64,000 nucleotides of DNA from Myxococcota bacterium (GTDB taxonomy: Bacteria; Myxococcota_A; UBA9160; UBA6930): NCBI GenBank assembly GCA_965223705.1, contig OZ245015.1:448001-512000 (forward strand), given 5' to 3'. The notes beneath the pieces are model-generated. The model saw only the letters and a program-made list of their open reading frames with translations, did no database searches and was not told the DNA's origin. The translations under genes were made by a program, and so were the position numbers. This document shows, piece after piece, positions 12,645-60,858 of this stretch (its first letter is position 1; each line of letters begins with the position of its first letter).

Positions 12645-12655
12645 GGCGCGATCCT

Positions 12656-19264: not shown

Positions 19265-20286
19265 AGCGTGTCGGGCGCGTTCCCTTCGAGCGGCTCTCCG
19301 AGCGCTTCCCGGGCGAGCTCGAGATTGCGGATTACACGCAACACACCTTCGCCTCGCACCGACAGAGCCTTCTCATAGGACGCGATCGCGAGACCGTAGT
19401 CGCCGCGAAGGTACTGGGCGTAGCCCAAGTTGTTGTGGGCTTCGGGCTCGGTCGCGATCTCTTGAAACACCTCGAGCGCTTCCTGGTCGTTGCCGGAAAG
19501 CGCGAGGGCGAGGCCCAGGTTGTTTCGCAGAGCGGGATCCCGCGGCTCGAGAACAATGGCGCGCTCGAGATGCGGAACCGCTCGCGCGGGCTCGCCGGAC
19601 AGCATGAACGAGACCGCGAGGTTGTTCGGAATCGAGTAGTCCGACGGACGTAGCTCCGCGGCGATCAAGTACGACTCCTGCGCGGCGCCGTGCTCGCCGG
19701 CGCGGTCGTAGATCACGCCGAGAATGCACCGCGGTGTCGCGGCGTTCGGGTCGAGCTCGATCGCTTGGAATAGCTCTTCTCGCGCCTCGTCGAGCTTGTC
19801 TTGCGCGAGAAACGCCAGCGCGAGACCCGAGTGAAGGCTCGATTGCCCGGGTCGACTCGAGATGAGCTCTTCGAGGATCATCTGCGCGCGCTCGGGTTCG
19901 CGACGAAGGTGAAGCAGCGCGACGCGCTCGACGGGCGCGATGTTGTTGTGATCCGCACGATAGGCCTGGAGATACGAGAAGAGAGCCGCGGCGAGTTCGC
20001 CGCTGTCGCGTTTCTGATCGCCCTCGGCCATGAGATTGACCGGGTCGGGCAGGGACTCGCGCTTCGCTTCTCGATCGCGGTCCGAGATCGCCTGCTGCTC
20101 CGCGCGCGCCTGGCGATACGACTCGATGGCCGCGGCGGCGCGATCACTCGAAGCGGTGGGCGCGTACGCCACAGGCGCGGTTTGGCAAGCCGAAAGGGTG
20201 GCGATAGCTCCGAGGGCGACAAACGAGCGCCACCGGGCAACCGATACAACGATCTTGGTCAGCAACATTCCCATTCCCCTAAACAA
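19261..20286 (-). CDS. tadD: TPR lipoprotein, TadD-like pilotin
   Basis: Lipobox LSAC, multiple TPRs (NNLAVS, NNLGL, HNNLGY); last gene of the tad operon. Confidence 0.7.
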   Translation of the reverse strand: MFRGMGMLLTKIVVSVARWRSFVALGAIATLSACQTAPVAYAPTASSDRAAAAIESYRQARAEQQAISDRDREAKRESLPDPVNLMAEGDQKRDSGELAAALFSYLQAYRADHNNIAPVERVALLHLRREPERAQMILEELISSRPGQSSLHSGLALAFLAQDKLDEAREELFQAIELDPNAATPRCILGVIYDRAGEHGAAQESYLIAAELRPSDYSIPNNLAVSFMLSGEPARAVPHLERAIVLEPRDPALRNNLGLALALSGNDQEALEVFQEIATEPEAHNNLGYAQYLRGDYGLAIASYEKALSVRGEGVLRVIRNLELAREALGEPLEGNAPDTL

Positions 20287-20308
20287 GCAGTTCCAAGCGC
20301 TTTTCGGA

Positions 20309-21229
20309 CTACTGTCCGGCGAGCGCAGAGATCAGCTTCAGAATCCCAGGTCCCGCGATGAAGATCAGCGTCGCGGGGAAAATCAATGCACCCGCCGGGA
20401 AGAGCATCTTGACCGGCGCTTTGGCGGCGGCTTCTTCGGCGATTTGGATGCGACGCTTGCGCATCCCGTCAGCGTGAACGCGCAAGGCGTCGGCGACGCT
20501 CGTCCCGAAGCGTTCGGTTTGGATCAGCATCGCCGTGAGCGAACTCACTTCGGACACGCCGGTTCGTTCGGCGAGGGCGCGCAGCGCGTCGACATTGGAC
20601 TTGCCGGCCTGGACTTCCAGGGACACCAACTCGAGTTCTTCGGCGAGTACCCGGCGCGAGGAGCCGAACTCGTTGGCGACGCGGGACAGTCCGGCCGTCA
20701 GGCCGAGACCCGACTCGACGCAGACCACCATCAAATCGAGCGCGTCCGGCAGCGCGTGCTCGATCTCGAGTTGTCGTCGGCGAACGCGGCGATCGAGAAG
20801 AAAGCTCGGGAGGACCAGGCCGCAGCCCGCTGCGAGCGCCATCGCGAACCCCGCGCGCGCCGGACTGAGGTCACCGTAGAAGGGCATGTTGGCGAGCAGA
20901 AGCGGTACGAGGACCGCCAGCGCCAGTCGAAGGCCGAAGTAGATCTGAACGGCGCCGGGCCGCCGGTAGCCCGCGTGGACCAGTCGTTTCCGCGCTTTCG
21001 ATGCGGAGGGGTCGTTCGGATCGGCGCGTTTACCGAGCCTCGCCAGGAAACGCGAGACGACGTTCGTTCGCTCCCTGAGAAGGAGGCTCGAATCGAGCGG
21101 CGCGCTGCCACCGAGTCGCCGAAGGCGCGCGAGTCGCGCGTTGACGGCGTCGGTTTTCGCCAGCAAAGAAATTCCCACGATGAGGAACGCCGCCGCGAGG
21201 AAACTCAAGATCGAGATGACGATGACCAT
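20309..21229 (-). CDS. tadC: Tad inner-membrane platform protein
   Basis: LPDALDLMVVCVESGLG, QTERFGTS, AEEAAAKAPVKM. Confidence 0.9.
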   Translation of the reverse strand: MVIVISILSFLAAAFLIVGISLLAKTDAVNARLARLRRLGGSAPLDSSLLLRERTNVVSRFLARLGKRADPNDPSASKARKRLVHAGYRRPGAVQIYFGLRLALAVLVPLLLANMPFYGDLSPARAGFAMALAAGCGLVLPSFLLDRRVRRRQLEIEHALPDALDLMVVCVESGLGLTAGLSRVANEFGSSRRVLAEELELVSLEVQAGKSNVDALRALAERTGVSEVSSLTAMLIQTERFGTSVADALRVHADGMRKRRIQIAEEAAAKAPVKMLFPAGALIFPATLIFIAGPGILKLISALAGQ

Positions 21230-21238
21230 GGCGAGCCT

Positions 21239-22252
21239 CTAGATCCTGACCACGCCGAGGCGTCGGCAGAGGGCGTATCCCACCAGCACCATGAGCGTCG
21301 CGAGGCCGGCGATCACACGCCCCGGTACGGTTTCGAAAAGCGGCGCGACGTAGTCCGGCCGCATCAACTTCATCATCAACACGAAGGCGAATGGAGCGAG
21401 GAGCAGGACGTTGGCCGACCAACGGGTCTGCGCGGTCAGCGATTTGATCTTGCCCTCGGTGCCGTGACGTTCGCGAATGACGGCGGCCAGGCTGTCGACG
21501 ATCTCGGCGAGGTTGCCGCCGGTCTCGCGCTGGATCATCAAGGCCGTCACGAAGAAGGGGAGGTCCGGAACGTCGATGCGATGTGCGAGGTTCGAGAGGG
21601 CCGCCGGCACGTCAAGTCCGAGTCGGATCTCCTCGGCAATGAGAGCGAACTCCGTTCCGACAGGATCACTCAGTTCGTCTCCAACCATTTGTAGGCTCGG
21701 CGTCACGGCGTGTCCGGCGCGAAGCGCTCGCGACAGGAGTTCGAGCGCGTCGGGCATCATCCGTTCAAAGCGCCGCATGCGCGCGTGCTTGCGACGCCAC
21801 ACCCAGAGGAGCGGGAGAAGCCCCGAAGCGAGCAGCGCCACGGCCATGCGAGGATCGGACAAGACGACCCACCCGATGAAGCCGCCACCCAGGCAAAGGG
21901 CCAGGGAGAGCCACAGGAACTCGGGGACGCGCAGCGGACGGCCGGCGCGGTATAGGAGCAGGTTCAGTTGTTCGAGAAGCGGGAGACGGGCGCTCCAGCC
22001 GGAGGTCATGCCCCATTCTTCGCGCAAGATGCTGGTCTTGTCCGCGGCTTGTTCTGAACGGAGTCGGGTGGCGAGATCCGTCAAGCGGGCCCTCGCGCGC
22101 CCTCCGCGCCGCACCCGGAACGCATCGATCGCCAGCATCAGGAACTCGACGAACATGAACGTCGAGAGCAAGATCAAGCCGTAGATGATGAGCTTGTGGT
22201 GCGCACGAGGTAGCAGCGCCGCAAGGTCGAAGATGCCCCACCAATCCGACAT
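21239..22252 (-). CDS. tadB: Tad inner-membrane platform protein
   Basis: PDALELLSRALRAGH, IQRETGGNLAE. Confidence 0.9.
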   Translation of the reverse strand: MSDWWGIFDLAALLPRAHHKLIIYGLILLSTFMFVEFLMLAIDAFRVRRGGRARARLTDLATRLRSEQAADKTSILREEWGMTSGWSARLPLLEQLNLLLYRAGRPLRVPEFLWLSLALCLGGGFIGWVVLSDPRMAVALLASGLLPLLWVWRRKHARMRRFERMMPDALELLSRALRAGHAVTPSLQMVGDELSDPVGTEFALIAEEIRLGLDVPAALSNLAHRIDVPDLPFFVTALMIQRETGGNLAEIVDSLAAVIRERHGTEGKIKSLTAQTRWSANVLLLAPFAFVLMMKLMRPDYVAPLFETVPGRVIAGLATLMVLVGYALCRRLGVVRI

Positions 22253-22254
22253 GA

Positions 22255-23613
22255 CTAGTCGCCCCGCGCGAAGAACAAATCGTGGCGCAGCGAGATGCCC
22301 GCCGCGGCGAGCTTCTCGACGAATCGCGGTCGCACGCCGGTGGGCGAGAGCTCGCCGAGAACTTGTCCCTTCTCGCCGGTTCCGGTGCGTTCGAAGCGGA
22401 AGATCTCTTGGGTGGTTACGACCGGACCTTCCATCCCGGTGATCTCGTGCATGCTGACAAGCCGCCTGGAACCGTCCGGCAAGCGGGAGAGCTGGACGAC
22501 GAGTTCGATGGCCGACGCGATCTGCTCTCGGACCGCCGATTGCGGGATGTCGAGTCCGCTCATGGCGACCATCGTCTCGACGCGGGAAATCGCGTCTCGC
22601 GGGCTGTTCGCGTGAATCGTGGTGAGCGATCCGTCGTGACCCGTGTTCATGGCCTGCAGCATGTCGAGGGCCTCAGACCCGCGGACCTCGCCGACGATGA
22701 TCCGGTCGGGGCGCATCCGAAGACTGTTGATCAAGAGCTCGCGTTGTGTGATCTGCCCGCGGCCTTCGACGTTCGGAGGGCGCGTTTCGAGTCGCACGAC
22801 GTGCCGCTGCTGGAGCTGCAGTTCCGCGGAGTCCTCGATGGTGACGATCCGCTCGGTCTCGCCGATGAAGCGCGAGAGCACGTTCAGCAGCGTCGTCTTG
22901 CCGGCGCCCGTTCCGCCGGACACGACGATGTTGAGCCGGGCGCCCACCGCCGCTTCCAGCAGCTCGACGACTTCCTCGGTGAGGCTTCCGTTCGCGATCA
23001 GTTCGCGCTCGCCCAACCGATCCGCACCAAAACGCCGAATCGAAAGGACGGGGCCGTCGATCGCCAAGGGCGGGATGATCGCGTTGACGCGCGATCCGTC
23101 GGCGAGCCGCGCATCGACCATCGGCGAGGTTTCGTCGACGCGTCGCCCGACCCCGGAGACGATCTTGTCGATAATCCGCATCAGGTGGTCGTCATCTTTG
23201 AACCGCGCGACGGTCTCTTCCAGCCGGCCGGAACGTTCGACGTAGATCTGGTCGAAACGATTGACGAGGACGTCGTCGACGGTCGGGTCCTGGAGCAACG
23301 GCTCGAGGGGGCCCAAGCCGAAGATCTCGTCTTTGACTTCGTCGACGACCCGATCGCGCTCCTGTCGCGTCAGAGGAACGTTTTCCTTTTCGAGGATCTT
23401 CTCGATGACGCGCTGAATGTCGGAACCGACCTGTTCGGCACTGGTCTCCGCGAGACGTGTCAGATCGATGTGCTCAAAGAGGCTGTTGTGAAGCCGCGAC
23501 TTGAGCTCCTGGTACTCGATCCGACGGATGCGGGCATCTTGCTCGTAGCGCCCTCCGTCAGCAGAGGAGACGAGCTCCAGACGGCGGCTGCGAAGGCGTT
23601 CAATGAGAGCCAT
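22255..23613 (-). CDS. cpaF: Tad assembly ATPase CpaF/TadA
   Basis: [42 protein letters not shown]. Confidence 0.95.
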
Positions 23614-24811
23614 GGAGTGCTCGCTTTAGGTAACCGCGGAGACCCTTCCGCGCGGTGGTGTCTTGAGTGTCTCCGCGACCGGAGAAGCCGCGGACAGCGC
23701 TCGCGAGTTCCTCGAAAGCTCCTGCGAGCCGGCTGCGGGGTGCCGCTTCGATGAGGGACTTTCCGTAGCTCACACACTCTCGCGCGGCTTCGAAGTCGTT
23801 CGGGAGCTTCGCGTCGAAGCTTCGCTCGAGGAACTCCGTCAAGTCGCGTTCGCTGACCGAGTTCTTGTCGCTGTCGCGGTTCAACACGAGCCGAATCTTC
23901 GAGGCCGGGAATCCGATTCGTTCCAGGAGCTCGATTCGTCGGCGCGTGTGGTGGAGTGTCGGAATGCACGCGTTCGTCACCAGCAACAGCGTGTCGAGGC
24001 GGTCGAGCGCCCGTAGCGTGACGTCGTCGAAATCCCGAGAGAGGTCGAAGAGGAGCCAATCGGCTTCTTCCCCAAGCACCTCGACCACGGTGTCGACGTG
24101 GCGTCCGCTGACGAGTTCGCCGTCCTCCATCTGTCGCGGCGCAGCGAGGATCGAGACGCCCGACGCGTGGCTATGGAGGATCGTTTTGAGATACGCCCCG
24201 TCGATTTCGCCCGTTCGTTTCGCGACGTCGGCGATGGTGTAGGCCGGATCGAGATCGAAGTAGAGGCTCACGTCTCCCTGCCGGAGGTCGAGATCGCAGA
24301 GCGTCACCCGATCGCCCGATCGACGCAGGGCCGTCGCGAGCTGGCAAGTCACGAACGTGCTCCCGGTGCCGCCCTTGGTCCCCATGACGCCGATGATGCT
24401 CGCCTTCGAGCCCGAGCCTCCTCCGAGCCCGAGCGAATCTTCGACGCCGCGCACCGAAGCGCGCAGCTCACGGATTCCCGCGCTGTTCGGGAGGTATTCC
24501 CGCGCGCCGGTGCGCATCGCCCGCAGGATGAGCTGGCTGTCGTCCTCGGGGCCGACGACTACGATGGTCGGGCGCGGAGCCGCGAGGCCTTCGACCGCGC
24601 GCAAGACCGCGTCGGCCTGCGCACCGAGACCCACGAGAAGCGCTTGCGGCGCTTCTTCTGCGACGCGCCGCACGAGCTCGTTCGGGAGCGCAACGGTCGC
24701 GTGCCGCTCCGCCGGCTGGTCGCCAGAGACGGCTTCCAGCAGGCGCGCCGTAAGCCCCGCGTCATCCGCGCAAATCACCCACGAGATTTCAGACATGCCA
24801 GTCTCCCACAC
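23600..24811 (-). CDS. cpaE: CpaE/TadZ (receiver-like + MinD-like ATPase)
   Basis: [25 protein letters not shown]. Confidence 0.85.
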
Positions 24812-24820
24812 CGAATCGAG

Positions 24821-25108
24821 TTATCGGCCGACGCCGATCACGTTGACGGTGGAACGATTCTTCGACGGTCGCCGGTGCTCCTGAGCGTCCTGGCCTTTTT
24901 CGTAGTTCTTGATTACGTGCTCGGCGCTCTTCGCATCGAGACCCTGATGCGCTTCTTGGAAGCCCGCATTGGGGTTCTCGACCATTCGCTCGTGAGCGGC
25001 GCGCGTCGAGTCTCCCCAGGTCTTGTCGAGCCGCGTCGGGGCGTCGCTTGCGCACGCCGTTGCGAACGCGAACAGAAAAACAGATGCCGTCGTCAGAAAG
25101 AGGCGCAT
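24821..25108 (-). CDS. Small tad-associated lipoprotein
   Basis: Lipobox ATAC; lies between the secretin and cpaE genes. Confidence 0.7.
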   Translation of the reverse strand: MRLFLTTASVFLFAFATACASDAPTRLDKTWGDSTRAAHERMVENPNAGFQEAHQGLDAKSAEHVIKNYEKGQDAQEHRRPSKNRSTVNVIGVGR

Positions 25109-26614
25109 TTACGGAAGCTCCTTTTCCGCCTCGGCGATCGACAGGCGGTGGCCCGTCTTCCCGAACATTCCGCTCGGGGTCGTATCGGCGGTCTCGGAGG
25201 AACCGCTGTCGCGGCCCTCCATCGCATTCGTCAGGTAGAACTCGTAGTCGCTCGGCTCGACAAAGTTGTCCGTGGGCAGAGCGGGGCGGTCGCCGTCGAG
25301 CGGTTTCACCAGTCGCGGGCGCACGATCATGACGAGCTCCGTCTCTTCGCGTCGGTACTGCTTGCTCCGGAAAAGCGTGCCGAGAACCGGGATGTCGCCG
25401 AGCACCGGGTACTGGCTCGCGGCCTCGCGCACGTCATCCGAGAGAAGTCCCGCGATGGCGAACGCCTGGCCGTCGCCGAGCTCGACGCCCGTCGACGCGC
25501 GACGGGTTCGGAAACCCGGGACCGTGCTTCCGGCCACCGCGGTTCCCAAGGTGAAGTCGGGCTCGCTGACTTCGGGCGTGATCTCCATGTGGATCCGGTT
25601 CGCGTCGAGCACCGTCGGCGTGAACTCGACGCCGATGCCGAACTGCTTGAAGCGGATCGTGATGGAGTTGAAACCGCCGCCTTGGGCGATCGGGATCGGG
25701 ACTTCGCCGCCGACCAGGAAGTTCGAGGACTGGCCGCTGCGGGCGACCAGCGTCGGTTCCGCGAGGATCTTCACCAGTCCGCGACCCTTCAAGAAGTTGA
25801 GGAGCAGGTCGTAGCGAGCGTTCGCCCCGTCGAAGGCGGAAAGAAGGAGGTTCACCCGATCGTTGAAGAGGAGCGCTCCGTTGCTGAAGTCGTCCGTCAG
25901 TTCGAGACGAGACAGGCTGTCCTGAAAATTGAAGGCCTGGAAGCCCGTGTCGCCGCGGAGATCTTGGACGGCGAAATTCGTCTCCATCTCCCGCGTGAAG
26001 GTCCGGGACATTTCCGCGATCGTGACTTCGATCATGACCTGCTGGTTGCTACCGACCTCGAGGAGGTTGATGATCTGGCCTTCGCCCTTCTTCTCCGGCA
26101 TGAGCGCCGCAGCCACGCGGAGGGCGCGGTCGACATCGGCGGCGCCGTCGACGCTGCCTTTCAGGACGATCGAGTTGCCGACGCTCTGCACGCGGATATC
26201 GTCCGCCGACATCACTTCGCGAAGGGTCGATTCCACCGCGCCGTGGGCGCGGCCGACGATGAGCTCGATAATCGACTGTGCGCGACCGGCGCGATCCCAG
26301 AGGATCACGTTTGTCTCGCCCACCGATCGGGTTACGAGATTGATCTCGCGCGAACCCAACACGACGAAGTCCGCGATTTCCGGGTCGGCGATCGAGACGC
26401 GCTTGACGGCGTAGTCGGTCCGCAGCAGGGCGCTCTTGCCGACCTGGAGGTTCAGGGAGCGCAACTGGCGCCCGCGGTCGCCTCCGTTGAGCTCGACCGT
26501 GGAGCTTCCCGCGCTCGTCGTGAACGCATGGTTCTCGGCGATCGCGCCGCTTGCGAGCAGGCAGGTTACGGCGAGGACAATTCCTGCGCGGAGTAGCTTG
26601 GTTCGAAGTGTCAT
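25109..26614 (-). CDS. cpaC: Tad secretin CpaC/RcpA
   Basis: Signal peptide, SIADPEIAD, LAEPTLVARSG..FLVGGEVP, PVLGDIPVLGTLF, ETELV. Confidence 0.92.
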   Translation of the reverse strand: MTLRTKLLRAGIVLAVTCLLASGAIAENHAFTTSAGSSTVELNGGDRGRQLRSLNLQVGKSALLRTDYAVKRVSIADPEIADFVVLGSREINLVTRSVGETNVILWDRAGRAQSIIELIVGRAHGAVESTLREVMSADDIRVQSVGNSIVLKGSVDGAADVDRALRVAAALMPEKKGEGQIINLLEVGSNQQVMIEVTIAEMSRTFTREMETNFAVQDLRGDTGFQAFNFQDSLSRLELTDDFSNGALLFNDRVNLLLSAFDGANARYDLLLNFLKGRGLVKILAEPTLVARSGQSSNFLVGGEVPIPIAQGGGFNSITIRFKQFGIGVEFTPTVLDANRIHMEITPEVSEPDFTLGTAVAGSTVPGFRTRRASTGVELGDGQAFAIAGLLSDDVREAASQYPVLGDIPVLGTLFRSKQYRREETELVMIVRPRLVKPLDGDRPALPTDNFVEPSDYEFYLTNAMEGRDSGSSETADTTPSGMFGKTGHRLSIAEAEKELP

Positions 26615-26640
26615 GATGGCTCCGTCATCCGCCCGCGCGG

Positions 26641-27459
26641 CTAGTTTCCGTACTCGGAGCGCGAGCGCTCCGTGCCTTTGATGATTTCGATGAATTCTTT
26701 CTGCACGTTGCGCTTCTTCTTCACCGGGCGCGGTTGCGCCTTCTTCTTCGCGGCTCCGTACAGGTCTCCCGCGCGAACCGCCTGGGTCTTCACGACTTCT
26801 TCGTCACCGGGGTTGCGCAGGGCGAGCTGGAGGCGCCCTTCGTGGGCGGCGTGGATCAAGCGCTCGGCGTTCTGAGGTTCGACCTCGAGCGTCACGACGT
26901 TGACGACCTTCGGTTCGCCGTCGGTCGTGTCTTCCAGCGCTTGGTCGACGGCGAGGACGCGGACATCCTGCAGTACGACCTTGGAGAAGTGCTGGTTGTC
27001 GGATCGGCGAAGCGTGGCCAACACGTCGACGCGCGTCCCGGGCTTGATGAAGCCGGCGACGCCGATCACGGCGTCGACCTTGACGGAGACCGCGCGGTGG
27101 CCTTCACCGATCATCGATACGAGACCGGACACCGCTCCTTCGGGCAGCAACAGCGACGGGAAGATCGGGTCGCCTTCCGAGAGCGGGTGGCGCAGCACGC
27201 GCCCGTTGAGTTCGGCCTTGCTTCCGAACGCCTTCTTCGGCGCGTGCGTCTCGGGCCATTCGACGAGTCGGATGTCATCGGCACCGATTGCGGTGCCGAC
27301 CGGAAGGTCGTGCGCGGCGAGGGCGACTTCGACGAGCCCGATCTCTTCCAAGACCGGTGCGGCTGCCGCTTTAGCCAAGTAGGTGCGCGTCAGGCCCATG
27401 GCTGCGAACCCAAAGACCACGGCGAGGACCAAGAACAAGAGGGAGCGTCGGTTCAACAT
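26641..27459 (-). CDS. cpaB: Flp pilus assembly protein CpaB/RcpC
   Basis: SAF domain, GVAGFIKPGTRVDV, VLAVDQ, LQLALRNP. Confidence 0.92.
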   Translation of the reverse strand: MLNRRSLLFLVLAVVFGFAAMGLTRTYLAKAAAAPVLEEIGLVEVALAAHDLPVGTAIGADDIRLVEWPETHAPKKAFGSKAELNGRVLRHPLSEGDPIFPSLLLPEGAVSGLVSMIGEGHRAVSVKVDAVIGVAGFIKPGTRVDVLATLRRSDNQHFSKVVLQDVRVLAVDQALEDTTDGEPKVVNVVTLEVEPQNAERLIHAAHEGRLQLALRNPGDEEVVKTQAVRAGDLYGAAKKKAQPRPVKKKRNVQKEFIEIIKGTERSRSEYGN

Positions 27460-27474
27460 CGGAAGTCCTTACAG

Positions 27475-27897
27475 CTACTCGTTGCGCATGACCGACGCGC
27501 CTTGAAGCGCGAGGCCATCCGAGAAGGCGGGAATCATGTTCGAGAGGACGGGGAACTGGAACGCGTAATCCACGCGAACCGTCGCGTTCGTTCCCGCGTC
27601 CCCGCATGCATTGGTGGTGGTCACGGTGACTTCGCCGGCGGGGATCCCGGCCGCGGCGACAAACTGGTTCACAATGGCTTCGACTTGCGTTTCGGCGGTC
27701 GCCGGATCGCAACCGGCCAGCGAAGCCACTCGCGCACCTTCGCGCGACGCGGCGGACAGGACCTGCCAGCGCTGGAACGCGATGCCCCACTCGATCACCG
27801 CGAACAGGATCAGCGCGAGGAGCGGCATGATGATCGCCATTTCGACCATTGCCGTTCCGCGAGTCGCCTTCTGTCGATGTCGCAACGCTATGCCCAT
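27475..27897 (-). CDS. tadE: TadE-like pseudopilin
   Basis: RG^TAMVEMAII prepilin site; SREGAR motif. Confidence 0.85.
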   Translation of the reverse strand: MGIALRHRQKATRGTAMVEMAIIMPLLALILFAVIEWGIAFQRWQVLSAASREGARVASLAGCDPATAETQVEAIVNQFVAAAGIPAGEVTVTTTNACGDAGTNATVRVDYAFQFPVLSNMIPAFSDGLALQGASVMRNE

Positions 27898-28568
27898 GGT
27901 GTCCCCCAAAGGAACTGCGCAGTAACCGAGCACCCCAGCACACAGGCGAAGGGCAGTACTCGCGTCGCCGCGGATCCTGCTTCGGGCGCCAAGTAAGTGA
28001 ACCGTTTGGTGTAAAAGGTGATGACGAAACTGCCGGCCCATCGGGTCAGGGCGTCCCAAAGTCCCCGATGCAGCAACAAGATGGCAACTCCGCACACCCC
28101 GCCGAGCAACGCCGACCAAACCAGCAACGAAGCGAGCACCGGAGCACCAAACCACGCGCCGAGCGCCATCGCGGCTTTGACATCCCCGGCGCCGAGGAAG
28201 CCCGTGACGTAGGGGAGGAGCAGGATTGCGAAGCCCGCGCCGATGCCGGCGAACGCGAAGCCCGCGCCGGAGACGCCAGAGAGCGCGGTGTGAAACAACA
28301 CAGCCGCGAACATCGCCGCGGCGTTGAGTGCGTTCGGAATACGAAAGCTTCGCACGTCGAAATAGACGGCGAGGGGGAGGAAGGCCGCTGCCCACACGAG
28401 CGTGGGCAGCGGCTCCTCGGCTCCGGTCGCGAGCAGTCCTACGACGAGCAGTCCCGCGAAAAGGAAAGAGCACGCGGAACGTCGCCGGGTCGTTGCGCTA
28501 GACGAACGTACCGGTTGCGGTGCGTCGGTGCGCGCGACACCGTCTGTAGAAGTGCACGACATCTCCAT
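27888..28568 (-). CDS. cpaA: A24 prepilin peptidase CpaA/TadV
   Basis: FDVRSFRIPN and GAGDVK aspartic motifs, LPFA. Confidence 0.85.
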   Translation of the reverse strand: MEMSCTSTDGVARTDAPQPVRSSSATTRRRSACSFLFAGLLVVGLLATGAEEPLPTLVWAAAFLPLAVYFDVRSFRIPNALNAAAMFAAVLFHTALSGVSGAGFAFAGIGAGFAILLLPYVTGFLGAGDVKAAMALGAWFGAPVLASLLVWSALLGGVCGVAILLLHRGLWDALTRWAGSFVITFYTKRFTYLAPEAGSAATRVLPFACVLGCSVTAQFLWGTPWA

Positions 28569-28593
28569 CTCTACTGAGAAAGAGGGGCCGGAG

Positions 28594-28767
28594 CTATTCC
28601 AGGTTCGTGATTTCGTCTTCGACGATTTGAAGGGCTTGCCCGATCGCTTCATCGAGTTCCGTCCACGCCGTAATGGCAGCGACTGCGAACACGACTGCGA
28701 CGATGGTCCACTCGACCATCTCCATGCCGTTCTCGTCTCGAACAAAATCCTTGAAGAACTTCAGCAT
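28594..28767 (-). CDS. flp: Flp/Fap major pilin (57 aa)
   Basis: RDENG^MEMVEW followed by a hydrophobic helix; GAGGTG SD. Confidence 0.85.
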   Translation of the reverse strand: MLKFFKDFVRDENGMEMVEWTIVAVVFAVAAITAWTELDEAIGQALQIVEDEITNLE

Positions 28768-28899
28768 CTTCCACCTCACCTGCCAGCGCTGGCTGGCGCA
28801 CGAACGCCAGTCCCCACCGAAAACTAAGTGGCACAGAGACACTCGTACGTGACGAGCGAATCGAACCCCATCGCCGATTACCCGGCCGACTTTCCTATC

Positions 28900-28914
28900 G
28901 CAAACCGCGTGCCG
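28900..28914 (-). promoter_or_regulatory. sigma54 (-24/-12) promoter for the flp-tad operon
   Basis: CGGCACGCGGTTTGC, exact GG-N10-GC spacing. Confidence 0.7.
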
Positions 28915-29015
28915 CGGAGCGCCGCAGCCTGGAACGGGAAGACAATCAATGAACTCGGGAGAGGAATGCGCGAACGTTGCGCGTGCAGCCCGCGCGCATG
29001 GTGGCAAGCGAGTGC

Positions 29016-30140
29016 CTACTTAACGACGCGCAGGGGGGTCTCGGTCAAAATTGACGTCAGGATGTCGTCGAGTTCATCGGCGTTGGGCGTCGTAAAGTAC
29101 TGACCGAACCCTGTCGTCATCTGTTGCATGAAGTTCGGATTGACAAGATGTTCGACGTCCTGGCACAGCATCGTGGGGTTCATCGTCACCTCGTAATAGA
29201 TCGCGAACGTTGAGATTCCTTCGGCTTCGGCCCTGTCTCGTGCCGCCAGGGCTTCGTTGATGCGCTGTTGTGTGAGAGCCTCGTTGGCTCTGGCACAGGG
29301 AACGCCATCCGAGACGAGAACGACGACGCGGGATCCGTCGCGCTGTTCCGCCGCGAGCAGAGTGTCGATAGCCTCGTTCAGGCCGGCGCCGATGTGGGTG
29401 CCATCGCAGGGGAAGAAACCTGCGCTGGCGCACCAATTGCCATCGAGCGCTGAGATTGCATCCAAGGTCGGCGGTAGCGCCTCAGGGAGCGCCGACAGCG
29501 GGCTGTCTACCTGAGAGGCCTCATTAAAAGACACGAGCCCCAACCGATCCCCAGCGATGGACTGATCGGACATCAGGTTCGAGAAAGAGCTAAGGGCGGC
29601 GATTGCGTCAGCTCGATCGTCGTGGAATGAGCGCGAAATGTCCTGAGCCATCATCACGTCCCGGGTTCCGATCCCCGCGACCGAAGACGCGCGCACGTTC
29701 GCCGTGTCCTTTCCCAAGAGCGGGGCGAAGAAGAGATCGAGGGGGCCTCCGGGTGAGCCGTTCGTGCGGCGGGCCGTCACGCGGACGGCGGAGATTCCGC
29801 CGAGGCCGCCGGGGGTGAACGTGCCGGTTGCGTAGTCGAAGCTGCCGAACTGCACGTCGGAGGCGTCGATTTCCACGGGGTCGCCGCCGGCGCGGTGGAG
29901 GCCGGCGACTTCGATCGCGGCGTTGATGGCTTCGCTCTGGAGAAGGCCTCCGCGCACTTCGGCCATCGCCGCGAGGGCGGCGGCGTCGGCGGCGTTCTGC
30001 AGTTGCGTGCGGGTTGCCAGCATGAGGCCGTTATCGATCGAGAGCGATACGGCACCCAGCAAGGCGATGAGCGCAGCGAGTACCAGCACCGTGACGGTGC
30101 CGCGGCTTCGACGCGCCGAATTTCGTTTGAAGGAAGGCAT
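29016..30140 (-). CDS. tadG: TadG-like tip pilin with vWA domain
   Basis: RG^TVT, LQNAADAAALA; MIDAS DISRS...GT...SDG. Confidence 0.85.
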   Translation of the reverse strand: MPSFKRNSARRSRGTVTVLVLAALIALLGAVSLSIDNGLMLATRTQLQNAADAAALAAMAEVRGGLLQSEAINAAIEVAGLHRAGGDPVEIDASDVQFGSFDYATGTFTPGGLGGISAVRVTARRTNGSPGGPLDLFFAPLLGKDTANVRASSVAGIGTRDVMMAQDISRSFHDDRADAIAALSSFSNLMSDQSIAGDRLGLVSFNEASQVDSPLSALPEALPPTLDAISALDGNWCASAGFFPCDGTHIGAGLNEAIDTLLAAEQRDGSRVVVLVSDGVPCARANEALTQQRINEALAARDRAEAEGISTFAIYYEVTMNPTMLCQDVEHLVNPNFMQQMTTGFGQYFTTPNADELDDILTSILTETPLRVVK

Positions 30141-30222
30141 CCCAGCTACTCCGCTCCTCGCCGGGACGAGCCCGCGGGAGTCGTTCCAGAAACGCGGACA
30201 GATCTCCACGGCGAGTTACTAC

Positions 30223-54607: not shown

Positions 54608-55636
54608 ATGAAGCTCGGACTCATGGTCGGGTACTCCGGCGGCTCGATGACCATCGACACAGAATCAATCCTCGAGGCCGAGCGTCTCGGGTTTGACTCC
54701 GTATGGACGGCCGAGGCTTACGGCTCTGACGCGGCTACACCGCTGGCCTACATCGCCGCGCTGACGGACCGCATCAAGCTCGGTACCGCGATCTTCCAGA
54801 TGCCGGCGCGCACGCCCGCGATGACCGCGATGACGGCGATGAGTCTCGACGCATTGTCCGGCGGGCGCTTCATCCTCGGGCTCGGCCCGAGTGGTCCCCA
54901 AGTGGTCGAAGGGTGGCACGGGGTGCCCTACGGCCGCCCGCTGACGCGCACGAAGGAATACATCCAGATCGTGCGGAAAATCTTGGCGCGCGAAGGACCC
55001 CTCGAGCACAAGGGCTTTCACTACGAGATCCCCTACATGGGAGATGGCTCGACCGGGCTCGGCAAGCCGCTAAAGAGCATTCTCCGCGGTCGGCCCGACA
55101 TGGAAATCTTCACCGCGTCCATCGGTCCGAAGGGCATCGCGTGCAGCGGCGAAGTCGCGGACGGTCTGTTTCCGGTTTGGATGGATCCGCAGAAGCCCGA
55201 ACTGTTCGACCCGTATCTCGCCGAGGGGTTCGCGAAGCGAACCGACGGCAAGAAGCGGGAGACGTTCCGCATGGCGCCGTTCGTCACCTGCGTGATGGGC
55301 GACGACCTCGAACGTTGCCGCATGCCGGTGAAGGGGATGCTCGCCCTCTACATCGGCGGCATGGGGGCGCGCGGGAAGAATTTCTACAACGACTATGCGA
55401 AGCGCATGGGCTACGAAGCCGAAGCCGTGGAGATCCAAGATCTCTACCTCGCGGGCAACAAGAACGAAGCGATGGCCAAGGTCCCCGACGCGCTGGTCGA
55501 TGAGGTCGCGCTGGTCGGCTCGGCGGATCGCATTCGCGATCAGCTCGCCAGGTGGAAGGGCACGACGGTGAACGACATGCTCATCTCGTGCAATCAGAAG
55601 CCCGCGCTGCGTGTGTTGGCCGAGTCGATTCTCTAG
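54608..55636 (+). CDS. LLM-class F420-dependent oxidoreductase (Rv3520c-like)
   Basis: [45 protein letters not shown]. Confidence 0.88.
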
Positions 55637-56646
55637 TCGACGCGCTTCCGCGCTCGAGTGAGCGCGTCGATCGCGTCGTCGATGTCAGCGCGCGTGACAC
55701 CCAGGTGCGTCACCGCGCGGAAGCGCGTCGCGGCGAAAGCGATCAAGAGGACGCCTTCCTCACGCGCCGCTTCGAGAAACCGCGATCCGGCGTCACAGTG
55801 AAACATCACGATGTTGGTTTCCGGCTCTTCGACGGCGAAACCGCGCTCGCGAAGTCCGGTGGCGAGCCGCCTCGCGTTGTCGTGATCTTCGGCCAGCCGG
55901 TCCAGGTGATGCTCGAGGGCGTAGAGTCCGCCGGAGGCGACGATCCCCGCTTGTCGCATCCCGCCGCCCATACGCTTGCGGAACCGGTGAAGCGTTTCGG
56001 CGTAGGCCGAACTCGTCGCGACGAGCGAGCCCACCGGCGCACCGAGTCCTTTCGACAGGCAGCACGAGACCGTGTCGAAGGGAGCGGCAAAATCGCGGAG
56101 GGGAACCCCCGTGGCGACGGAGGCGTTCCAGATGCGTGCGCCGTCCAGGTGAATTGCCAGGCCGCCCGCACGACCGGCGTCCGCGATTTTTCGAATCGTC
56201 TCGAGCGGGAAGATTCTCCCGCCCGCGGCGTTATGGGTGTTCTCGATGGCCACCACGGTCGCCGGAGCTCGGTGGGGATCTCGCGGGGGGAGCGCTTCGC
56301 GGAGGTCGTTTTCGTCGAAGAGGCCCGTCTCGCCCAACGTGTGGATGTGCAACCCCGCCAGTGCCGAAGCCGCGCCGGATTCGTAGCGCAGGATGTGCGC
56401 GCCGTGCCCCGCGATGACGACGTCCCCCGGACGGGTCAACGTCTGCAACGCGACTTGGTTGGCCATGGTTCCGGACGGGAAGAAGAGCGCCGTCTCTTTC
56501 CCGAGCAGGGACGCAACGCGCTCCTGCAAACGATTCACGCTCGGATCTTCGGCGAAGACGTCGTCCCCGACGGGGGCGTCCGCCATCACTTTTCGCATGG
56601 CATCGGTAGGGCGCGTCAACGTGTCGCTGCGGAGGTCGATCGGCAT
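55633..56646 (-). CDS. ltaE: Low-specificity L-threonine aldolase
   Basis: [35 protein letters not shown]. Confidence 0.93.
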
Positions 56647-56702
56647 GCGGAAAAGCATAGCCCCGGCGGCGACCGCTCCCGAGGGTACGTTAGCGTTGCG
56701 CC

Positions 56703-57473
56703 GTGACCTCCGAAGAGCGAAATCGAGAAGCGCAGCTCGCCGATGCTTGGCGCCGCGCATCGCGCGTTTCGATCCTCACGGGAGCCGGCCTTTCCACGGC
56801 GTCGGGTATTCCCGATTTCCGCTCCCCAGGTGGGCGTTGGGAACGCTACCAGCCCGTTCCGCTCCCGGAGTTTCTCGAGAGCGAGACGTCTCGCGAAACG
56901 TATTGGGGCTACAAGCGCGAGACGTGGCCGGTCATCCAGGCCGCCGAGCCGAATCCCGCCCACGACGCACTGGCCTCACTCGGCCGAGCCGGGAAAATCG
57001 CGTTGTTGGTCACCCAGAACGTCGATGGTCTGCACGAACGCAGCGGGTTTCCGACAGACCGCCTGGTGAACATTCACGGCACCGACGCTCGGGTCCGGTG
57101 TTTGTCGTGCAGCGAGGGGTTCAGTCGGGAGGCGATTCAACATCGGCTCGAGGAAGGCGAGCGGGTCCCGCGGTGCGCGTGCGGAGGGTTGCTCAAACCC
57201 GAGACGATCTCCTTTGGACAAAGTCTCGTCGAAGACGATTTGCAACGCGCGTTCGAGGGCGCGGCGAAGTGCGACTTGTTCGTCGCCGTGGGAACGTCTC
57301 TGGTGGTCGGTCCGATCAACGCGATGTTTGACATCGCGGAGCGGGCGGGAGCCGAGACCGCGATCTTGACCGCGAGCGAGACACCTTTCGATGAGCGGGC
57401 GGGACACCGGCTCCACAGTCCACTCGAAACGGTGCTGCCGGCCTTGTGTGCCGGCGTTCTCGGAACGCACTAG
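56703..57473 (+). CDS. cobB: Sir2/CobB NAD-dependent protein deacylase
   Basis: [24 protein letters not shown], CxxC/CxC Zn site, GTSL.V. Confidence 0.92.
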
Positions 57474-57517
57474 TCCCGAAATCGGCAGGTAGAAGGCGTC
57501 TCGCGGCGTTTTTTTGT

Positions 57518-57545
57518 TTGACTCCGTCGGTGGAATTCGTAACAT
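57518..57545 (+). promoter_or_regulatory. sigma70-type promoter for the histone gene
   Basis: TTGACT-N16-TAACAT with an upstream T-tract. Confidence 0.55.
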
Positions 57546-57633
57546 CCGGCGGCCCGCAACGAACGGGATCGCGTTTCGCGGCTCGGCGGGTCCATCGAAA
57601 AGTTAAAACCGTTCACGGGGAAAGAGGTAGGAC

Positions 57634-57849
57634 ATGGCAGCACGAAGAAAGAAGACGACCCGCCGCCGCTCGTCGAAGCCGGCAGAGCTGATTATTTCGA
57701 AGGCTCGCACGAAGGCTTCCGTCAAGAAGTGCAACGTTGGCGCGGAATTCTACGAGGCCCTCGACAAGGTCGTCCGCGACATGATCAAGGGCGCCGAGGC
57801 GCGCGCGATCGGCAACAAGCGCAAGACGCTGAAAGCGGTCGATCTCTAG
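57634..57849 (+). CDS. Bacterial histone-fold protein with a basic N-terminal tail
   Basis: 71 aa; alpha1 LIISKARTK, alpha2 AEFYEALDKVVRDMIKGAEARA, RKTLKAVDL (RKTxxxxD) terminus; AGAGG SD. Confidence 0.88.
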   Translation: MAARRKKTTRRRSSKPAELIISKARTKASVKKCNVGAEFYEALDKVVRDMIKGAEARAIGNKRKTLKAVDL

Positions 57850-57877
57850 CAGCGCTTTGCCGGAAACGGCACGATAA

Positions 57878-57919
57878 AAGGCGGCGCGGGTCAAAGCCCG
57901 CGCCGCCTTCGTCGTTTTT
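57878..57919. terminator. Bidirectional hairpin terminator
   Basis: 13-bp stem AAGGCGGCGCGGG/CCCGCGCCGCCTT flanked by A- and T-runs, between convergent genes. Confidence 0.75.
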
Positions 57920-59081
57920 AACCGTCCTCTTGGTCTTCGAGGGGTTCCGTGAAATGCGCGGGAACGACGCTTCGGTCGAGGTTGGCTCCGACTCGGAACA
58001 GATGAACGAGGGAGACTCGCCGCGCGACCTCTTCGAGGCCGAGCCCGCGTCGCGCCGCCACGTACTCGAGGCCCGCGCTGGCAATGGTGAGCGCTTTGCG
58101 GAGTGCCGCGGGTAGCGTTTCGGCATCGCCCAGCGGAAGGCGGTCCGCCACCGCGACCCGGTTCGCAAGCGCAATCAGACGAAACAACGCCGCCTGCCTG
58201 TGTCCCTCGTCGAGTGCCTGCAAAGCGAGGAGCAAACTCGGGGTGTCCTCCCGCAGGTCCGGAAGCCGCGGGATCCACACCGGAAGGGACCAGGTTCCGA
58301 TCTCGTGTTCTTCTGGCACGAGATCCCACGTGTGCTCCGGGACGAGGGCGTAGATCTCCAGCGAGGTTTCCTCGTCGGGGAACCCGAGATCCTGCAAGCG
58401 CCCTTCTCTCCAACGCCGCGCCCACTCGCGGTTTTCCGTCGGAAGCTCCCACGACACGGCCTGCAACATGCGGAAATAGCGCCAGTAGTCCTTCTGGAAG
58501 AGGATCCGCAGGAACGTGGTCACGTCCGCAAGATCATCCTGCTCGCGCCGCGCGGTGTAGTAGAACTGACCGTCGAGACTTTGGGCCGCGTCCGGAACTT
58601 TCTCTTCGTCCTCTTTGGTTTTCATGAAGACGTCGACCCGGTCCGCTAGCCAGAGGTAGACGAGCTCGGGATCGAGTTCGTGGCTCACTCGGAGCGCGGC
58701 GTCCTCGCCGGAATTGACGAGTGCGACCATCCACTCGGAGAACTTTGTGGGATCGGGCTCCCGGATGCCCCACGTATCGAGATCCACGCACGCGACCCAC
58801 TGCTCCGGCGTCGCGATGCCGAGCAGCCAGCCGGCATCGTGGAGCCCGATCGCTTTGGCGGTAAAACAGAGCTCGGCTTCCGGCAGCAACGGGACCACGT
58901 TTTCGGGTTCATCGAGGAGACCGAGAAGTTCGGCACGCGCCGCAACCGGGGTTTCGCAGATCACGGCGACGCACTGATCCGCGTCGAGCGAATTCAGTGT
59001 CGCAGAGGCCGCCGCGCGGTCTCGCCGAGCGAGACGCAGCAGATCGCCAGACAGTTCCCGAGGCGCCGCAACGGGTTTCAT
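57918..59081 (-). CDS. DUF6178-like protein
   Basis: ATPEQ..CVDLDTW, RWREGRLQDLGFP, LANRVAVAD, LFRVG recalled from this family. Confidence 0.65.
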   Translation of the reverse strand: MKPVAAPRELSGDLLRLARRDRAAASATLNSLDADQCVAVICETPVAARAELLGLLDEPENVVPLLPEAELCFTAKAIGLHDAGWLLGIATPEQWVACVDLDTWGIREPDPTKFSEWMVALVNSGEDAALRVSHELDPELVYLWLADRVDVFMKTKEDEEKVPDAAQSLDGQFYYTARREQDDLADVTTFLRILFQKDYWRYFRMLQAVSWELPTENREWARRWREGRLQDLGFPDEETSLEIYALVPEHTWDLVPEEHEIGTWSLPVWIPRLPDLREDTPSLLLALQALDEGHRQAALFRLIALANRVAVADRLPLGDAETLPAALRKALTIASAGLEYVAARRGLGLEEVARRVSLVHLFRVGANLDRSVVPAHFTEPLEDQEDG

Positions 59082-59158
59082 AGCCGCAATCTAGCGCGCG
59101 CGGCGTCAAAGCTATGATCCCTGTCCGTGATGTGTTCCGGACGAGGAGGCGGGCTCCC

Positions 59159-59764
59159 GTGATCAGGCTCCCCGAGATTCGAGGCGCGCTCCGGGCCAAG
59201 ACGCCCGCGGAGATGGATCCCGAGGGGCGCAACCAGGCGGCCGTGGCGATGGTTTTCCGCGACGAGCCCGAAGCGACCGAAGTGCTCTTCATCGAGCGCG
59301 CGAGCCATCCGGCGGATCCGTGGTCCGGCCACATGGCCTTTCCCGGCGGGCGTGTCGATCCGGTGGACGCATCCCTCCGGGCGGCCGCCGAGCGCGAGAC
59401 GCGGGAGGAAGTCGGTGTCGAGCTCCGCGGTGCCGAATATCTGGGACGGCTCGACGACATCGAGGGCTATCGGGGCGGTCGCAAAGTGGGCCTCGTGATC
59501 AGCGCGTTCGCGTACTACCACCCGGAGCCGGAAGAGCTCATCCCGTCCTACGAAGTCGCCGAGGCACTTTGGGTGCCGGTCTCACGGCTCTGGGATCCCA
59601 CGCACCGGGTCGATCATCACCACCAGGGGGCGGGGCCGTATCCGGGAATTCAGGTCAGCGAGTCGGCGAGCCACATCGTGTGGGGCCTCACGTACCGCTT
59701 CGTGCAGAACTTCCTCGACTCACTGGGCTTGGACCGCGCCGGAGGCGCCGGGCCGCATCCCTAG
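59159..59764 (+). CDS. Nudix CoA pyrophosphatase
   Basis: DPWSGHMAFPGG, RETREEVG, VWGLT; GTG after GAGGAGG. Confidence 0.88.
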   Translation: MIRLPEIRGALRAKTPAEMDPEGRNQAAVAMVFRDEPEATEVLFIERASHPADPWSGHMAFPGGRVDPVDASLRAAAERETREEVGVELRGAEYLGRLDDIEGYRGGRKVGLVISAFAYYHPEPEELIPSYEVAEALWVPVSRLWDPTHRVDHHHQGAGPYPGIQVSESASHIVWGLTYRFVQNFLDSLGLDRAGGAGPHP

Positions 59765-59949
59765 CGTTCGTTCGAATACCCCGCGCATTCTCGGACCGGA
59801 AGCTCGGGGTAGCGGCGAAAGGCCGGGTTCTCGTCGGCCAAGCCGCAGCGATAGAACGCACTGCCTCGCCGATTGCGGGTGATGCGGGCGTGTCGGCAAG
59901 CGGCGCACAAGCCCGCCGTGCCGTTTTCGTCGCGACTCGGTTTTCCCAC
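59761..59949 (-). CDS. Small Cys-rich hypothetical protein
   Basis: GLCAAC...FYRC...YPELPVREC; TAGACT 6 nt before GTG. Confidence 0.65.
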   Translation of the reverse strand: MGKPSRDENGTAGLCAACRHARITRNRRGSAFYRCGLADENPAFRRYPELPVRECAGYSNER

Positions 59950-59973
59950 GCGGCGAGTCTACAATCCGCGACC

Positions 59974-60858
59974 ATGCCCCGCAGAGGACGCCGCGACCGA
60001 ATCGACCGAATCCTCGAGCTGACCGAGCGTCTGCTCGGCCGCCACGTGCCGGATCCCCCCGGAAAGGACGTCTTTCGAGACACGGCGGCGTTTCGCTGGG
60101 ATGCCCGGCGCGGGCTCGGCGCCCTTGTGCCGATCGCAGCGCCGCAAGGTTTTGATCTCGACGACTTGGTCGGCGTCGACCGCGCCCGGACGCGACTCCT
60201 CGACAACACGCGTCAGTTCTTGGCGGGCGTCCCTTCGAACCACGTCCTTCTCTACGGCGAACGCGGGACCGGGAAATCTTCGGCGGTGCGCGGCCTCCTG
60301 ACGCGCTTCGCGTCCGAGGGCTTGCGGCTCATCGAGCTCCACAAGAGCGATCTCGTCCATCTTCCCGAGGTGCTCGAAGCGATTCGCGGCGCGCCGTTCC
60401 GGTTCCTGTTGTTCTGCGATGACCTCTCCTTCGACGAGGGGGAGACGGGCTACCGCGAACTCAAGGCGGCATTGGAGGGAAGCCTCGAGGCACCACCCGA
60501 GAACGTGCGGATCATCGCCACCAGCAACCGCCGCTATCTCCTACCGCAGAAGCGCTCCGAGAACGCCGAAGTGCGGGTCGACGAAGACGGAGAGCTCCAT
60601 CCCGGCGAGGCCCTCGAAGAGAAGCTCGCGCTCGCCGATCGCTTCGGACTCGTGCTCGGTTTTTTCTCCTTCGACCAAGACACGTATCTGGCGATCGTCC
60701 GGCGCTACCTCGAGAAAGACGGCGGGCCCGAGCTCGACCCGGGGCTTCGGGAGGAAGCGCTGCGCTGGGCGCTCGATCGCTCGAGCCGATCCGGGCGCAC
60801 GGCGCGCCAATTCGTCGATGACGTTCTCGGCAGGGAGGCGCTCGCCGCCGAGCGCTAG
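59974..60858 (+). CDS. DUF815 AAA+ ATP-binding protein
   Basis: NHVLLYGERGTGKSS, FCDDLSF, ATSNRR, DRFGL, RSGRTA.QF. Confidence 0.88.
   Translation: MPRRGRRDRIDRILELTERLLGRHVPDPPGKDVFRDTAAFRWDARRGLGALVPIAAPQGFDLDDLVGVDRARTRLLDNTRQFLAGVPSNHVLLYGERGTGKSSAVRGLLTRFASEGLRLIELHKSDLVHLPEVLEAIRGAPFRFLLFCDDLSFDEGETGYRELKAALEGSLEAPPENVRIIATSNRRYLLPQKRSENAEVRVDEDGELHPGEALEEKLALADRFGLVLGFFSFDQDTYLAIVRRYLEKDGGPELDPGLREEALRWALDRSSRSGRTARQFVDDVLGREALAAER

Follow-up and report, generated by a model that had tools for sequence, protein, structure and literature searches.

A tailed histone of apparent face-to-face type and its probably accessory sirtuin neighbour in an order of Myxococcota

Does a bacterial histone gene that directly follows a sirtuin gene point to a system for histone modification? 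We address this question for a stretch of 64,000 nucleotides from a Myxococcota genome (contig OZ245015.1, forward-strand positions 448,001 to 512,000, GenBank assembly GCA_965223705.1), called the window throughout. On its plus strand a Sir2-family open reading frame (ORF) of 256 residues with a GTG start (56703-57473) is followed, after a spacer of 160 bp (57474-57633), by an ORF of 71 residues that starts with ATG and has the C-terminus NKRKTLKAVDL (57634-57849). A sequence-only reading had taken the latter for a tailed histone ending in RKTLKAVDL, 160 bp past a co-oriented Sir2 gene, and had proposed that the two genes form a histone-modification system. Coordinates, family profile and fold model agree with the description: the histone is real, its basic tail is real and the Sir2 protein is apparently intact. 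The proposed system is not supported, as the linkage between both genes is not conserved in relatives. Most probably the histone is a nucleoid protein of the face-to-face (FtF) type and the adjoining sirtuin an accessory neighbour that is kept in place by local gene order.

Neither Pfam nor NCBIfam yields a match for the 71-residue protein itself, and searching the PDB with the single sequence returns only a marginal match (E 0.015). Consequently, a family profile and a fold model were needed to establish its identity. Judged from its database relatives the ORF is far beyond chance: 1624 proteins match it at E<=1e-3, and the best 120 of these are 69 to 125 residues long (mostly about 70) and 73 to 100% identical. 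Some sources name such relatives 'histone H3/H4' or 'DUF1931'. A profile built from 32 diverse family members ranks HTkC (9F2C, 1.2e-15) first among the solved structures, then HLp (9QT0, 4.3e-12) and HBb (8CMP, 1.2e-10; 8FVX, 5.4e-10), with eukaryotic and archaeal nucleosomal histone-fold proteins far behind. HLp is the FtF histone of Leptospira perolatii (PDB 9QT0-9QT2; Hu et al. 2025, PMC12701072), and 9F2C is, in the available text of PMC11390915, the FtF histone of Thermococcus kodakarensis.

The AlphaFold model of the protein has a mean pLDDT (predicted local distance difference test) of 81, with 88-94 over the fold and 53-60 over the first 20 residues. Helices are modelled at residues 23-29 and 37-60 (alpha2, 24 residues), followed by a single turn at 68-70 (alpha3) just before the end of the chain at L71. 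The protein thereby divides into a tail (residues 1-17) and a fold (approximately 18-71). The eight best Foldseek matches are all chains of HTkC, HLp and HBb, with template modelling (TM) scores by target of 0.77-0.87 and root-mean-square deviations of 1.1-1.9 A; we rely on these values and on the identity of the matches, since for such a short protein all Foldseek E-values exceed 0.001. The layout is that of an alpha3-truncated histone: helix, loop, long helix, loop and short helix, with an alpha3 of 3-4 residues and a shortened alpha2. The RxTxxxxD motif of this group is present as R63-K-T65-L-K-A-V-D70. N61, T65 and D70 do not vary among the 32 diverse sequences, and conservation of R57 and R63 is at least 90%. 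The pattern R57-x3-N61-x-R63-x-T65-x4-D70 has exactly the spacing of the FtF logo residues R48, N52, R54, T56 and D61, which we took from the text of PMC11390915, the logo figure being supplementary. According to that text (Schwab et al. 2024), R48 and N52 lie at the dimer-dimer contact of FtF histones and are absent in 'bacterial dimers'. In the aligned columns of R57 and N61, HLp has R and N, whereas HBb has S and D.

Complex prediction points the same way. Four copies of residues 16-71 reach an ipSAE (interaction prediction score from aligned errors) of 0.87, against 0.00 for the best of three controls, with 100% contact agreement between runs and a partner pLDDT of 91. Beside the ordinary dimer interface, the four-copy model has a second one at residues 56-57, 60-61, 63 and 69-70. 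Taken together, sequence signature and models indicate that the 71-residue protein is a true alpha3-truncated histone of the FtF, tetramer-forming type, a type that has already been described. In the cell, two chains would form a histone-fold dimer, and two such dimers would be held together in a closed tetramer by contacts at the end of alpha2 and in the short alpha3 (R57, N61, R63, D70). This tetramer would bind and wrap DNA non-specifically, as in Leptospira HLp, while the disordered Arg/Lys tail of 17 residues would add positive charge.

To place the gene among its relatives we used 151 genomes of the window's order (91 of them of high quality, 65 genera), 201 genomes of the phylum, and 57 histone loci from species-representative genomes. 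Within the order the histone is found in 144 of the 151 genomes, in 89 of the 91 high-quality ones and in 64 of the 65 genera, almost always once. The genome under study carries one copy, together with two HU/IHF-family genes. In the phylum sample the family profile matches 50 of the 201 genomes; these include every sampled family of the order and, in the same class, all 5 genomes of a sister family, while elsewhere the profile gives weaker, scattered matches. Within its Myxococcota order the histone gene belongs to the core and is single-copy.

Fused doublets also occur among the relatives. Protein P0001 (125 aa) has two fold repeats, and at G052:C50:163422-163790 two tandem histone matches share one open frame of 167 aa, which would be a pseudodimeric FtF histone.

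The tail (residues 1-17) contains 5 Arg and 3 Lys and is predicted to be disordered; the lysines are K6, K7 and K15, as the sequence-only reading had listed. A basic stretch of 8-21 residues precedes the ELIISK-type start of alpha1 in 57/57 loci, although for three of these the start is uncertain (no ATG found). Its usual beginning, MAA[RK][RK]KK, is conserved at the protein level. At positions 4-5 Arg and Lys swap freely, which fits selection for charge, and the tail most likely strengthens DNA binding through its positive charge. As a feature of bacterial FtF histones a basic tail is not new. The earlier statement that bacterial histones are mostly tail-less is true of Bd0055-type dimers, but the available text of PMC11390915 describes basic tails as common in FtF histones, and the supplementary figures of that paper may already show the Myxococcota tails.

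The sirtuin matches Pfam SIR2 over profile positions 1-180 of 180 (E 4.2e-40, 138 bits). It remains below the cut-off of the NCBIfam CobB equivalog NF040867 (209.9 vs 320 bits) and below that of the subfamily model NF001753 as well (215 vs 243). The closest solved structures are Sir2-Af2 (1ma3, 2.7e-39) and Sir2Tm (1yc5). In the alignment to Sir2-Af2 the motifs GAGxS...GIPxFR, TQNxD, HG and the first CxxC match, while the second Cys pair reads CxC rather than CxxC; we take these motifs to provide NAD (nicotinamide adenine dinucleotide) binding, the catalytic His and the zinc-binding Cys pairs. From its motifs, the protein looks like an intact general NAD-dependent protein deacylase. A second Sir2 gene is present in this genome (G000:C1:49143-49952, equal to L075:3144-3953); its product is 37% identical to the window copy and belongs to a tier found in nearly all genomes of the order. 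Acs, correctly listed earlier as present in the window (10689-12671, minus strand, ACAS_N and AMP-binding), was considered as the client of the sirtuin and set aside: it lies 44 kb from the sirtuin and histone genes, a distance that implies no linkage, and the CobB scores do not tell which Sir2 serves it.

What decides the question is how far sirtuin and histone travel together. Orthologues of the window sirtuin stand out clearly (62-69% identity, E<=4e-94) from the remaining Sir2 matches, which are 35-48% identical. Some Sir2 is found in 148 of the 151 order genomes, but the orthologue in only 31, this one included. It lies within 3 kb of the histone gene in 23 of the 31 and on another contig in 7, and the last genome (family f10) has no histone match. 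With the histone itself in 144 genomes, the idea that relatives conserve the linkage is not borne out. In two genomes of the same genus (87% and 75% complete) the orthologue was not found, only the distant tier. Unlinked orthologues are seen in 6/6 sampled genomes of family f12 and in one f10 genome. We took up to 12 kb around each sirtuin in 8 genomes (the 7 unlinked cases and the one with no histone match) and around each of the 7 unlinked histones: none of the 8 sirtuin loci holds a histone, aldolase or DUF6178 gene, and none of the 7 histone loci holds a sirtuin gene. A hydrolase gene lies next door to the histone in 6/7 of the latter loci and DUF6178 is present in 4/7. In the phylum sample the orthologue occurs in 10 of the 201 genomes, all in the histone-bearing class; one of the ten, from a sister order, has sirtuin and histone on different contigs.

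A maximum-likelihood tree of 22 orthologues (14 linked, including the window copy, and 8 unlinked), with the second Sir2 as outgroup, tells the same. The orthologues form one tight, poorly resolved group in which linked and unlinked copies are mixed. The best tree has four changes of state, at least two of which are forced by well-supported branches, and the nearest relative of the window sirtuin is an unlinked copy. There is no histone-linked sirtuin subclade. Nor do tail features track the linkage: comparing 13 linked with 44 unlinked loci, mean tail length is 15.1 vs 14.3 residues and mean Lys count 4.4 vs 4.8. The synteny survey suggested earlier, which would relate linkage to tail presence, comes out negative, as the tail is found at 57/57 loci whether a sirtuin is near or not. 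Neither the 46 ORFs scanned in the window nor the six immediate neighbours included an acetyltransferase gene. The sirtuin is an accessory, dispensable-looking paralogue and is probably not dedicated to the histone. A dedicated histone-sirtuin system is not supported by the comparative evidence, and the caveat of the sequence-only reading, that the adjacency may be chance, turns out to be its better half.

The genes around the pair provide the explanation for their proximity. Neighbours were counted by tblastn with the window's neighbouring genes over the 57 representative loci. The most persistent neighbour of the histone is DUF6178, present at 43/57 loci and convergent within 700 bp at 39. 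It is followed by the NUDIX gene (39/57), an alpha/beta-hydrolase gene on the minus strand directly upstream (31/57), the DUF815 ATPase (27/57) and the PLP (pyridoxal phosphate)-dependent aldolase (26/57). The sirtuin is found within 6 kb at 13/57 loci only, that is at 12/47 loci with at least 4 kb of upstream sequence, and within 400 bp at 3. The order of the block is aldolase, sirtuin, usually hydrolase, histone, DUF6178, NUDIX, DUF815. At 9/13 linked loci the opposite-strand hydrolase gene lies between sirtuin and histone, and at 10/13 the sirtuin is divergent from the aldolase gene. The tight adjacency seen in the window is due to the absence of the intervening hydrolase gene. Among the representative loci no sirtuin was found where the other block genes are missing; such loci include all those labelled Latescibacterota, Methylomirabilis/NC10, Eisenbacteria, Planctomycetota and Gammaproteobacteria. 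This dependence on the block indicates an inherited group of genes to which the sirtuin belongs as a variable member. The sirtuin is kept near the histone in 22/29 other genomes that have both genes, a retention similar to that of block genes without a conceivable role for the histone.

The histone gene appears to have its own transcription signals. ATG 57634 is the first start past an in-frame stop, an AGAGG-type ribosome site lies ahead of it, and no further Met follows before M50. The spacer contains a promoter-like site at 57518-57545 on the plus strand (TTGACT, 16 nt, TAACAT), the one site found where shuffles give an expectation of 0.1; it agrees with the own promoter proposed in the sequence-only reading and implies a 5' untranslated region (UTR) of about 80 nt. 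Such a site, always with a spacer of 16 nt and 75-148 nt ahead of the ATG, is found in 26/55 upstream regions including that of the window, against a chance expectation of about 2 obtained by rough arithmetic rather than by shuffling. The sirtuin-adjacent loci L012 and L059 are among them. Downstream, at 57878-57909 on the plus strand, lies an intrinsic-terminator-like hairpin with a 14-pair stem (11 G-C pairs) followed by CGTCGTTTTT. Flanked by T runs on either side, it lies between the histone gene and the convergent DUF6178 gene and is shared by both. The best explanation of these sequence signals is that the histone gene is probably transcribed from a promoter of its own and ended by a terminator of its own.

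Since the promoter-like site is conserved in position, the histone mRNA should carry a long 5' UTR (57546-57633). An Rfam scan of 57300-58000 returned nothing credible (best E 0.16, far under the gathering scores), and the predicted RNA fold of the spacer is not more stable than its shuffles (z = 0.90).

Several points weigh against the view that the histone is an FtF nucleoid protein with an accessory sirtuin beside it. Firstly, the complex prediction was calibrated on two copies and not on four (the ipSAE mark is reached by 20/30 proteins solved as pairs and by 1/23 solved as single chains), and the tetramer may have passed because the model reproduced FtF tetramers already solved (9F2C, 9QT0). 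Since similar tetramers have been solved and the calibration concerns pairs, the pass demonstrates likeness to FtF tetramers rather than binding in the cell. Secondly, in 22/22 other orthologue-bearing genomes of families f1, f5, f7, f8 and f9 the sirtuin shares the strand of the histone and precedes it by 0.2-3.0 kb, being directly adjacent (204-261 bp) in four of them. Its placement is more orderly than random, yet no more so than that of the aldolase, DUF6178 and NUDIX genes. Thirdly, a pattern scan calls no terminator in the spacer, which has only a weak hairpin ahead of a U7 run (approximately 57491-57516), and read-through from sirtuin to histone, hence co-transcription, is possible in the window. 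Fourthly, K6 is nearly invariant in the tail. Finally, the second Sir2 fits the CobB model slightly better than the window copy (240 vs 210 bits, both <320), and the window copy could therefore be the specialised one.

How then would the sirtuin and the histone relate to each other, if at all? The alternative that survives best, and which we hold to be quite possible if tentative, is that an abundant histone is acetylated non-specifically and cleared by any Sir2, the window Sir2 having many substrates and its position being irrelevant. It is in line with the near-universal presence of some Sir2 in the order, with the two copies in this genome, and with the fact that the depositors of Sir2-Af2 and Sir2Tm describe these only as NAD-dependent deacetylases or deacylases. 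Acetylation of HU-family nucleoid proteins is moreover documented in Bacillus and Streptomyces (for the latter, in the available text of PMC11229371). On the other side, the literature searched gave no acetylome or activity data for any FtF histone. This alternative is compatible with an FtF nucleoid protein beside an accessory sirtuin and not opposed to it.

A dedicated switch would ask for more. Here the adjacent Sir2 would erase acyl marks on the tail lysines K6, K7 and K15: acetylation would lower the charge of the tail and loosen the DNA, and NAD-dependent deacetylation would restore compaction, tying chromatin to metabolism. The pair is adjacent and co-oriented in the window and co-oriented wherever it is linked, which includes the 22 further genomes of five families given above; the Sir2 motifs look intact by comparison with Sir2-Af2; the orthologue is, within the phylum sample, confined to the histone-bearing class; and precedents exist in CobB1-HupS (PMC11229371) and in the Asgard SIR2 (bioRxiv 10.64898/2026.07.02.735847), as far as the available text of both goes. 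These supporting points, however, do not separate a dedicated pair from generic deacetylation, and restriction to one class is expected of any clade-specific gene. Of the genomes that carry this tailed histone, roughly four fifths do without this sirtuin, and where the orthologue is present it is unlinked throughout the f12 sample, in one f10 genome and in one genome of the sister order. The two genes are usually kept apart by one on the other strand, and a promoter-like site of its own precedes the histone. Tail features do not follow the linkage, the linked sirtuins form no separate clade, and the scan of the neighbourhood showed no acetyltransferase gene. In the window the tail is rich in Arg (5 R, 3 K), and Arg is not deacylatable. 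Such a switch is therefore improbable. Equally improbable is a facultative eraser in the fifth of the order that keeps the sirtuin, with Sir2 removing acyl groups from K6 and neighbouring tail lysines.

Finally, it is unlikely that the histone is a dimer of the Bd0055/HBb type that bends DNA instead of an FtF tetramer that wraps it: the match to HBb is good (profile E 1.2e-10, TM by target 0.77-0.81) and 'bacterial dimer' histones are reported from Myxococcota_A in the available text of PMC11390915, but FtF proteins score better in sequence, the nearly invariant R57 and the invariant N61 are both absent in bacterial dimers according to the same text, and the confident second interface of the four-copy model falls exactly on the R57/N61 region.

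Some features of the surroundings remain to be described. The aldolase ORF (GntG / low-specificity threonine aldolase family, 55633-56760, minus strand) overlaps the sirtuin ORF by 58 bp at their divergent 5' ends, as called; one of the two starts is thus probably further in. The DUF6178 gene (57918-59081, minus strand; Pfam DUF6178 E 5.2e-64) is convergent with the histone gene and is not claimed here as a functional part; its protein has, beyond that, only a weak MgtE_N-like stretch (E 0.059). Beyond it, on the side away from the histone, come the NUDIX gene (59114-59764, plus strand), with a weak likeness to coenzyme A (CoA) pyrophosphatase (54.6 bits vs a cut-off of 134), and the gene of the DUF815 AAA ATPase (59920-60858, plus strand). 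The window also holds dnaA (5777-7168, plus strand), about 50 kb from the histone gene; the latter is thus probably close to the replication origin, where gene dosage tends to be high. A Tad/Flp-type pilus cluster occupies 19261-30209 on the minus strand, with genes for a secretin, RcpC/CpaB, a ParA-like ATPase, a T2SSE ATPase, two T2SSF proteins, a prepilin peptidase and a TadG-like VWA protein.

Histones were discovered in bacteria only recently, and to our knowledge bench work has covered just two of them, HBb and HLp. The gene described here belongs to a large and very uniform group of FtF histones with tails, which is present almost throughout one order of Myxococcota that is mostly uncultured. 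With its near-complete source genome (2 contigs, 95% complete) the window could be a useful reference for this group. At the same time, the notion of a histone code beside the gene fails once relatives are compared, so that work on a false lead can be spared. If a facultative eraser were nonetheless at work, nucleoid compaction in the species concerned would be switched in an NAD-linked way, and bacteria would have a histone-fold counterpart of Sir2-Alba, CobB1-HupS and the Asgard SIR2-histone pair.

It is useful to compare the locus with these and other known systems. In Sulfolobus, the sirtuin Sir2 reportedly removes acetyl groups from the nucleoid protein Alba and so raises its affinity for DNA. 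CobB1 of Streptomyces venezuelae acts on the lysine-rich HupS; in the available text of PMC11229371, deacetylation of this nucleoid protein by a sirtuin raises its DNA affinity, which is the model for reading the window pair as a switch. Both cases were shown by experiment and not deduced from gene adjacency, and their substrates have HU and Alba folds rather than histone folds. By comparison, nothing past partial synteny ties the window sirtuin to the histone, and no report of this gene pair was found in the literature searched. As in Asgard archaea, the genome encodes Sir2-family enzymes together with a histone whose N-terminal tail bears lysines. For the Asgard proteins, according to the available part of the preprint (bioRxiv 10.64898/2026.07.02.735847), in vitro assays followed how tail peptides are acetylated and deacetylated. 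The same part of the preprint states that the Sir2 of B. subtilis did not complement yeast silencing.

As to the histone itself, HBb (Bd0055) of Bdellovibrio bacteriovorus (PDB 8CMP, 8FVX) is likewise alpha3-truncated, with the RKT...D motif and a similar monomer fold. The window histone differs in having the dimer-dimer R and N as well as a basic tail, both of which HBb lacks, and HBb is reported, in the source text available, to bend or coat DNA as a dimer. The FtF histones are closer in kind, although sequence identity to HLp and HTkC is only 23-34%. HLp has a loop L1 that is two residues longer. Where the window histone has its 17-residue Arg/Lys tail, HLp as crystallised has only about six disordered residues at the N-terminus, and HTkC has none. 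The organism also has its two HU/IHF-family genes, in contrast to what PMC12701072 describes for Leptospira. The R-x3-N-x-R-x-T-x4-D pattern is shared with HLp, HTkC having E in place of N. With HLp and HTkC alike, the window histone has in common a fold of about 55 residues, an alpha3 cut to one turn, a predicted tetramer through the same interface and a single histone gene per genome.

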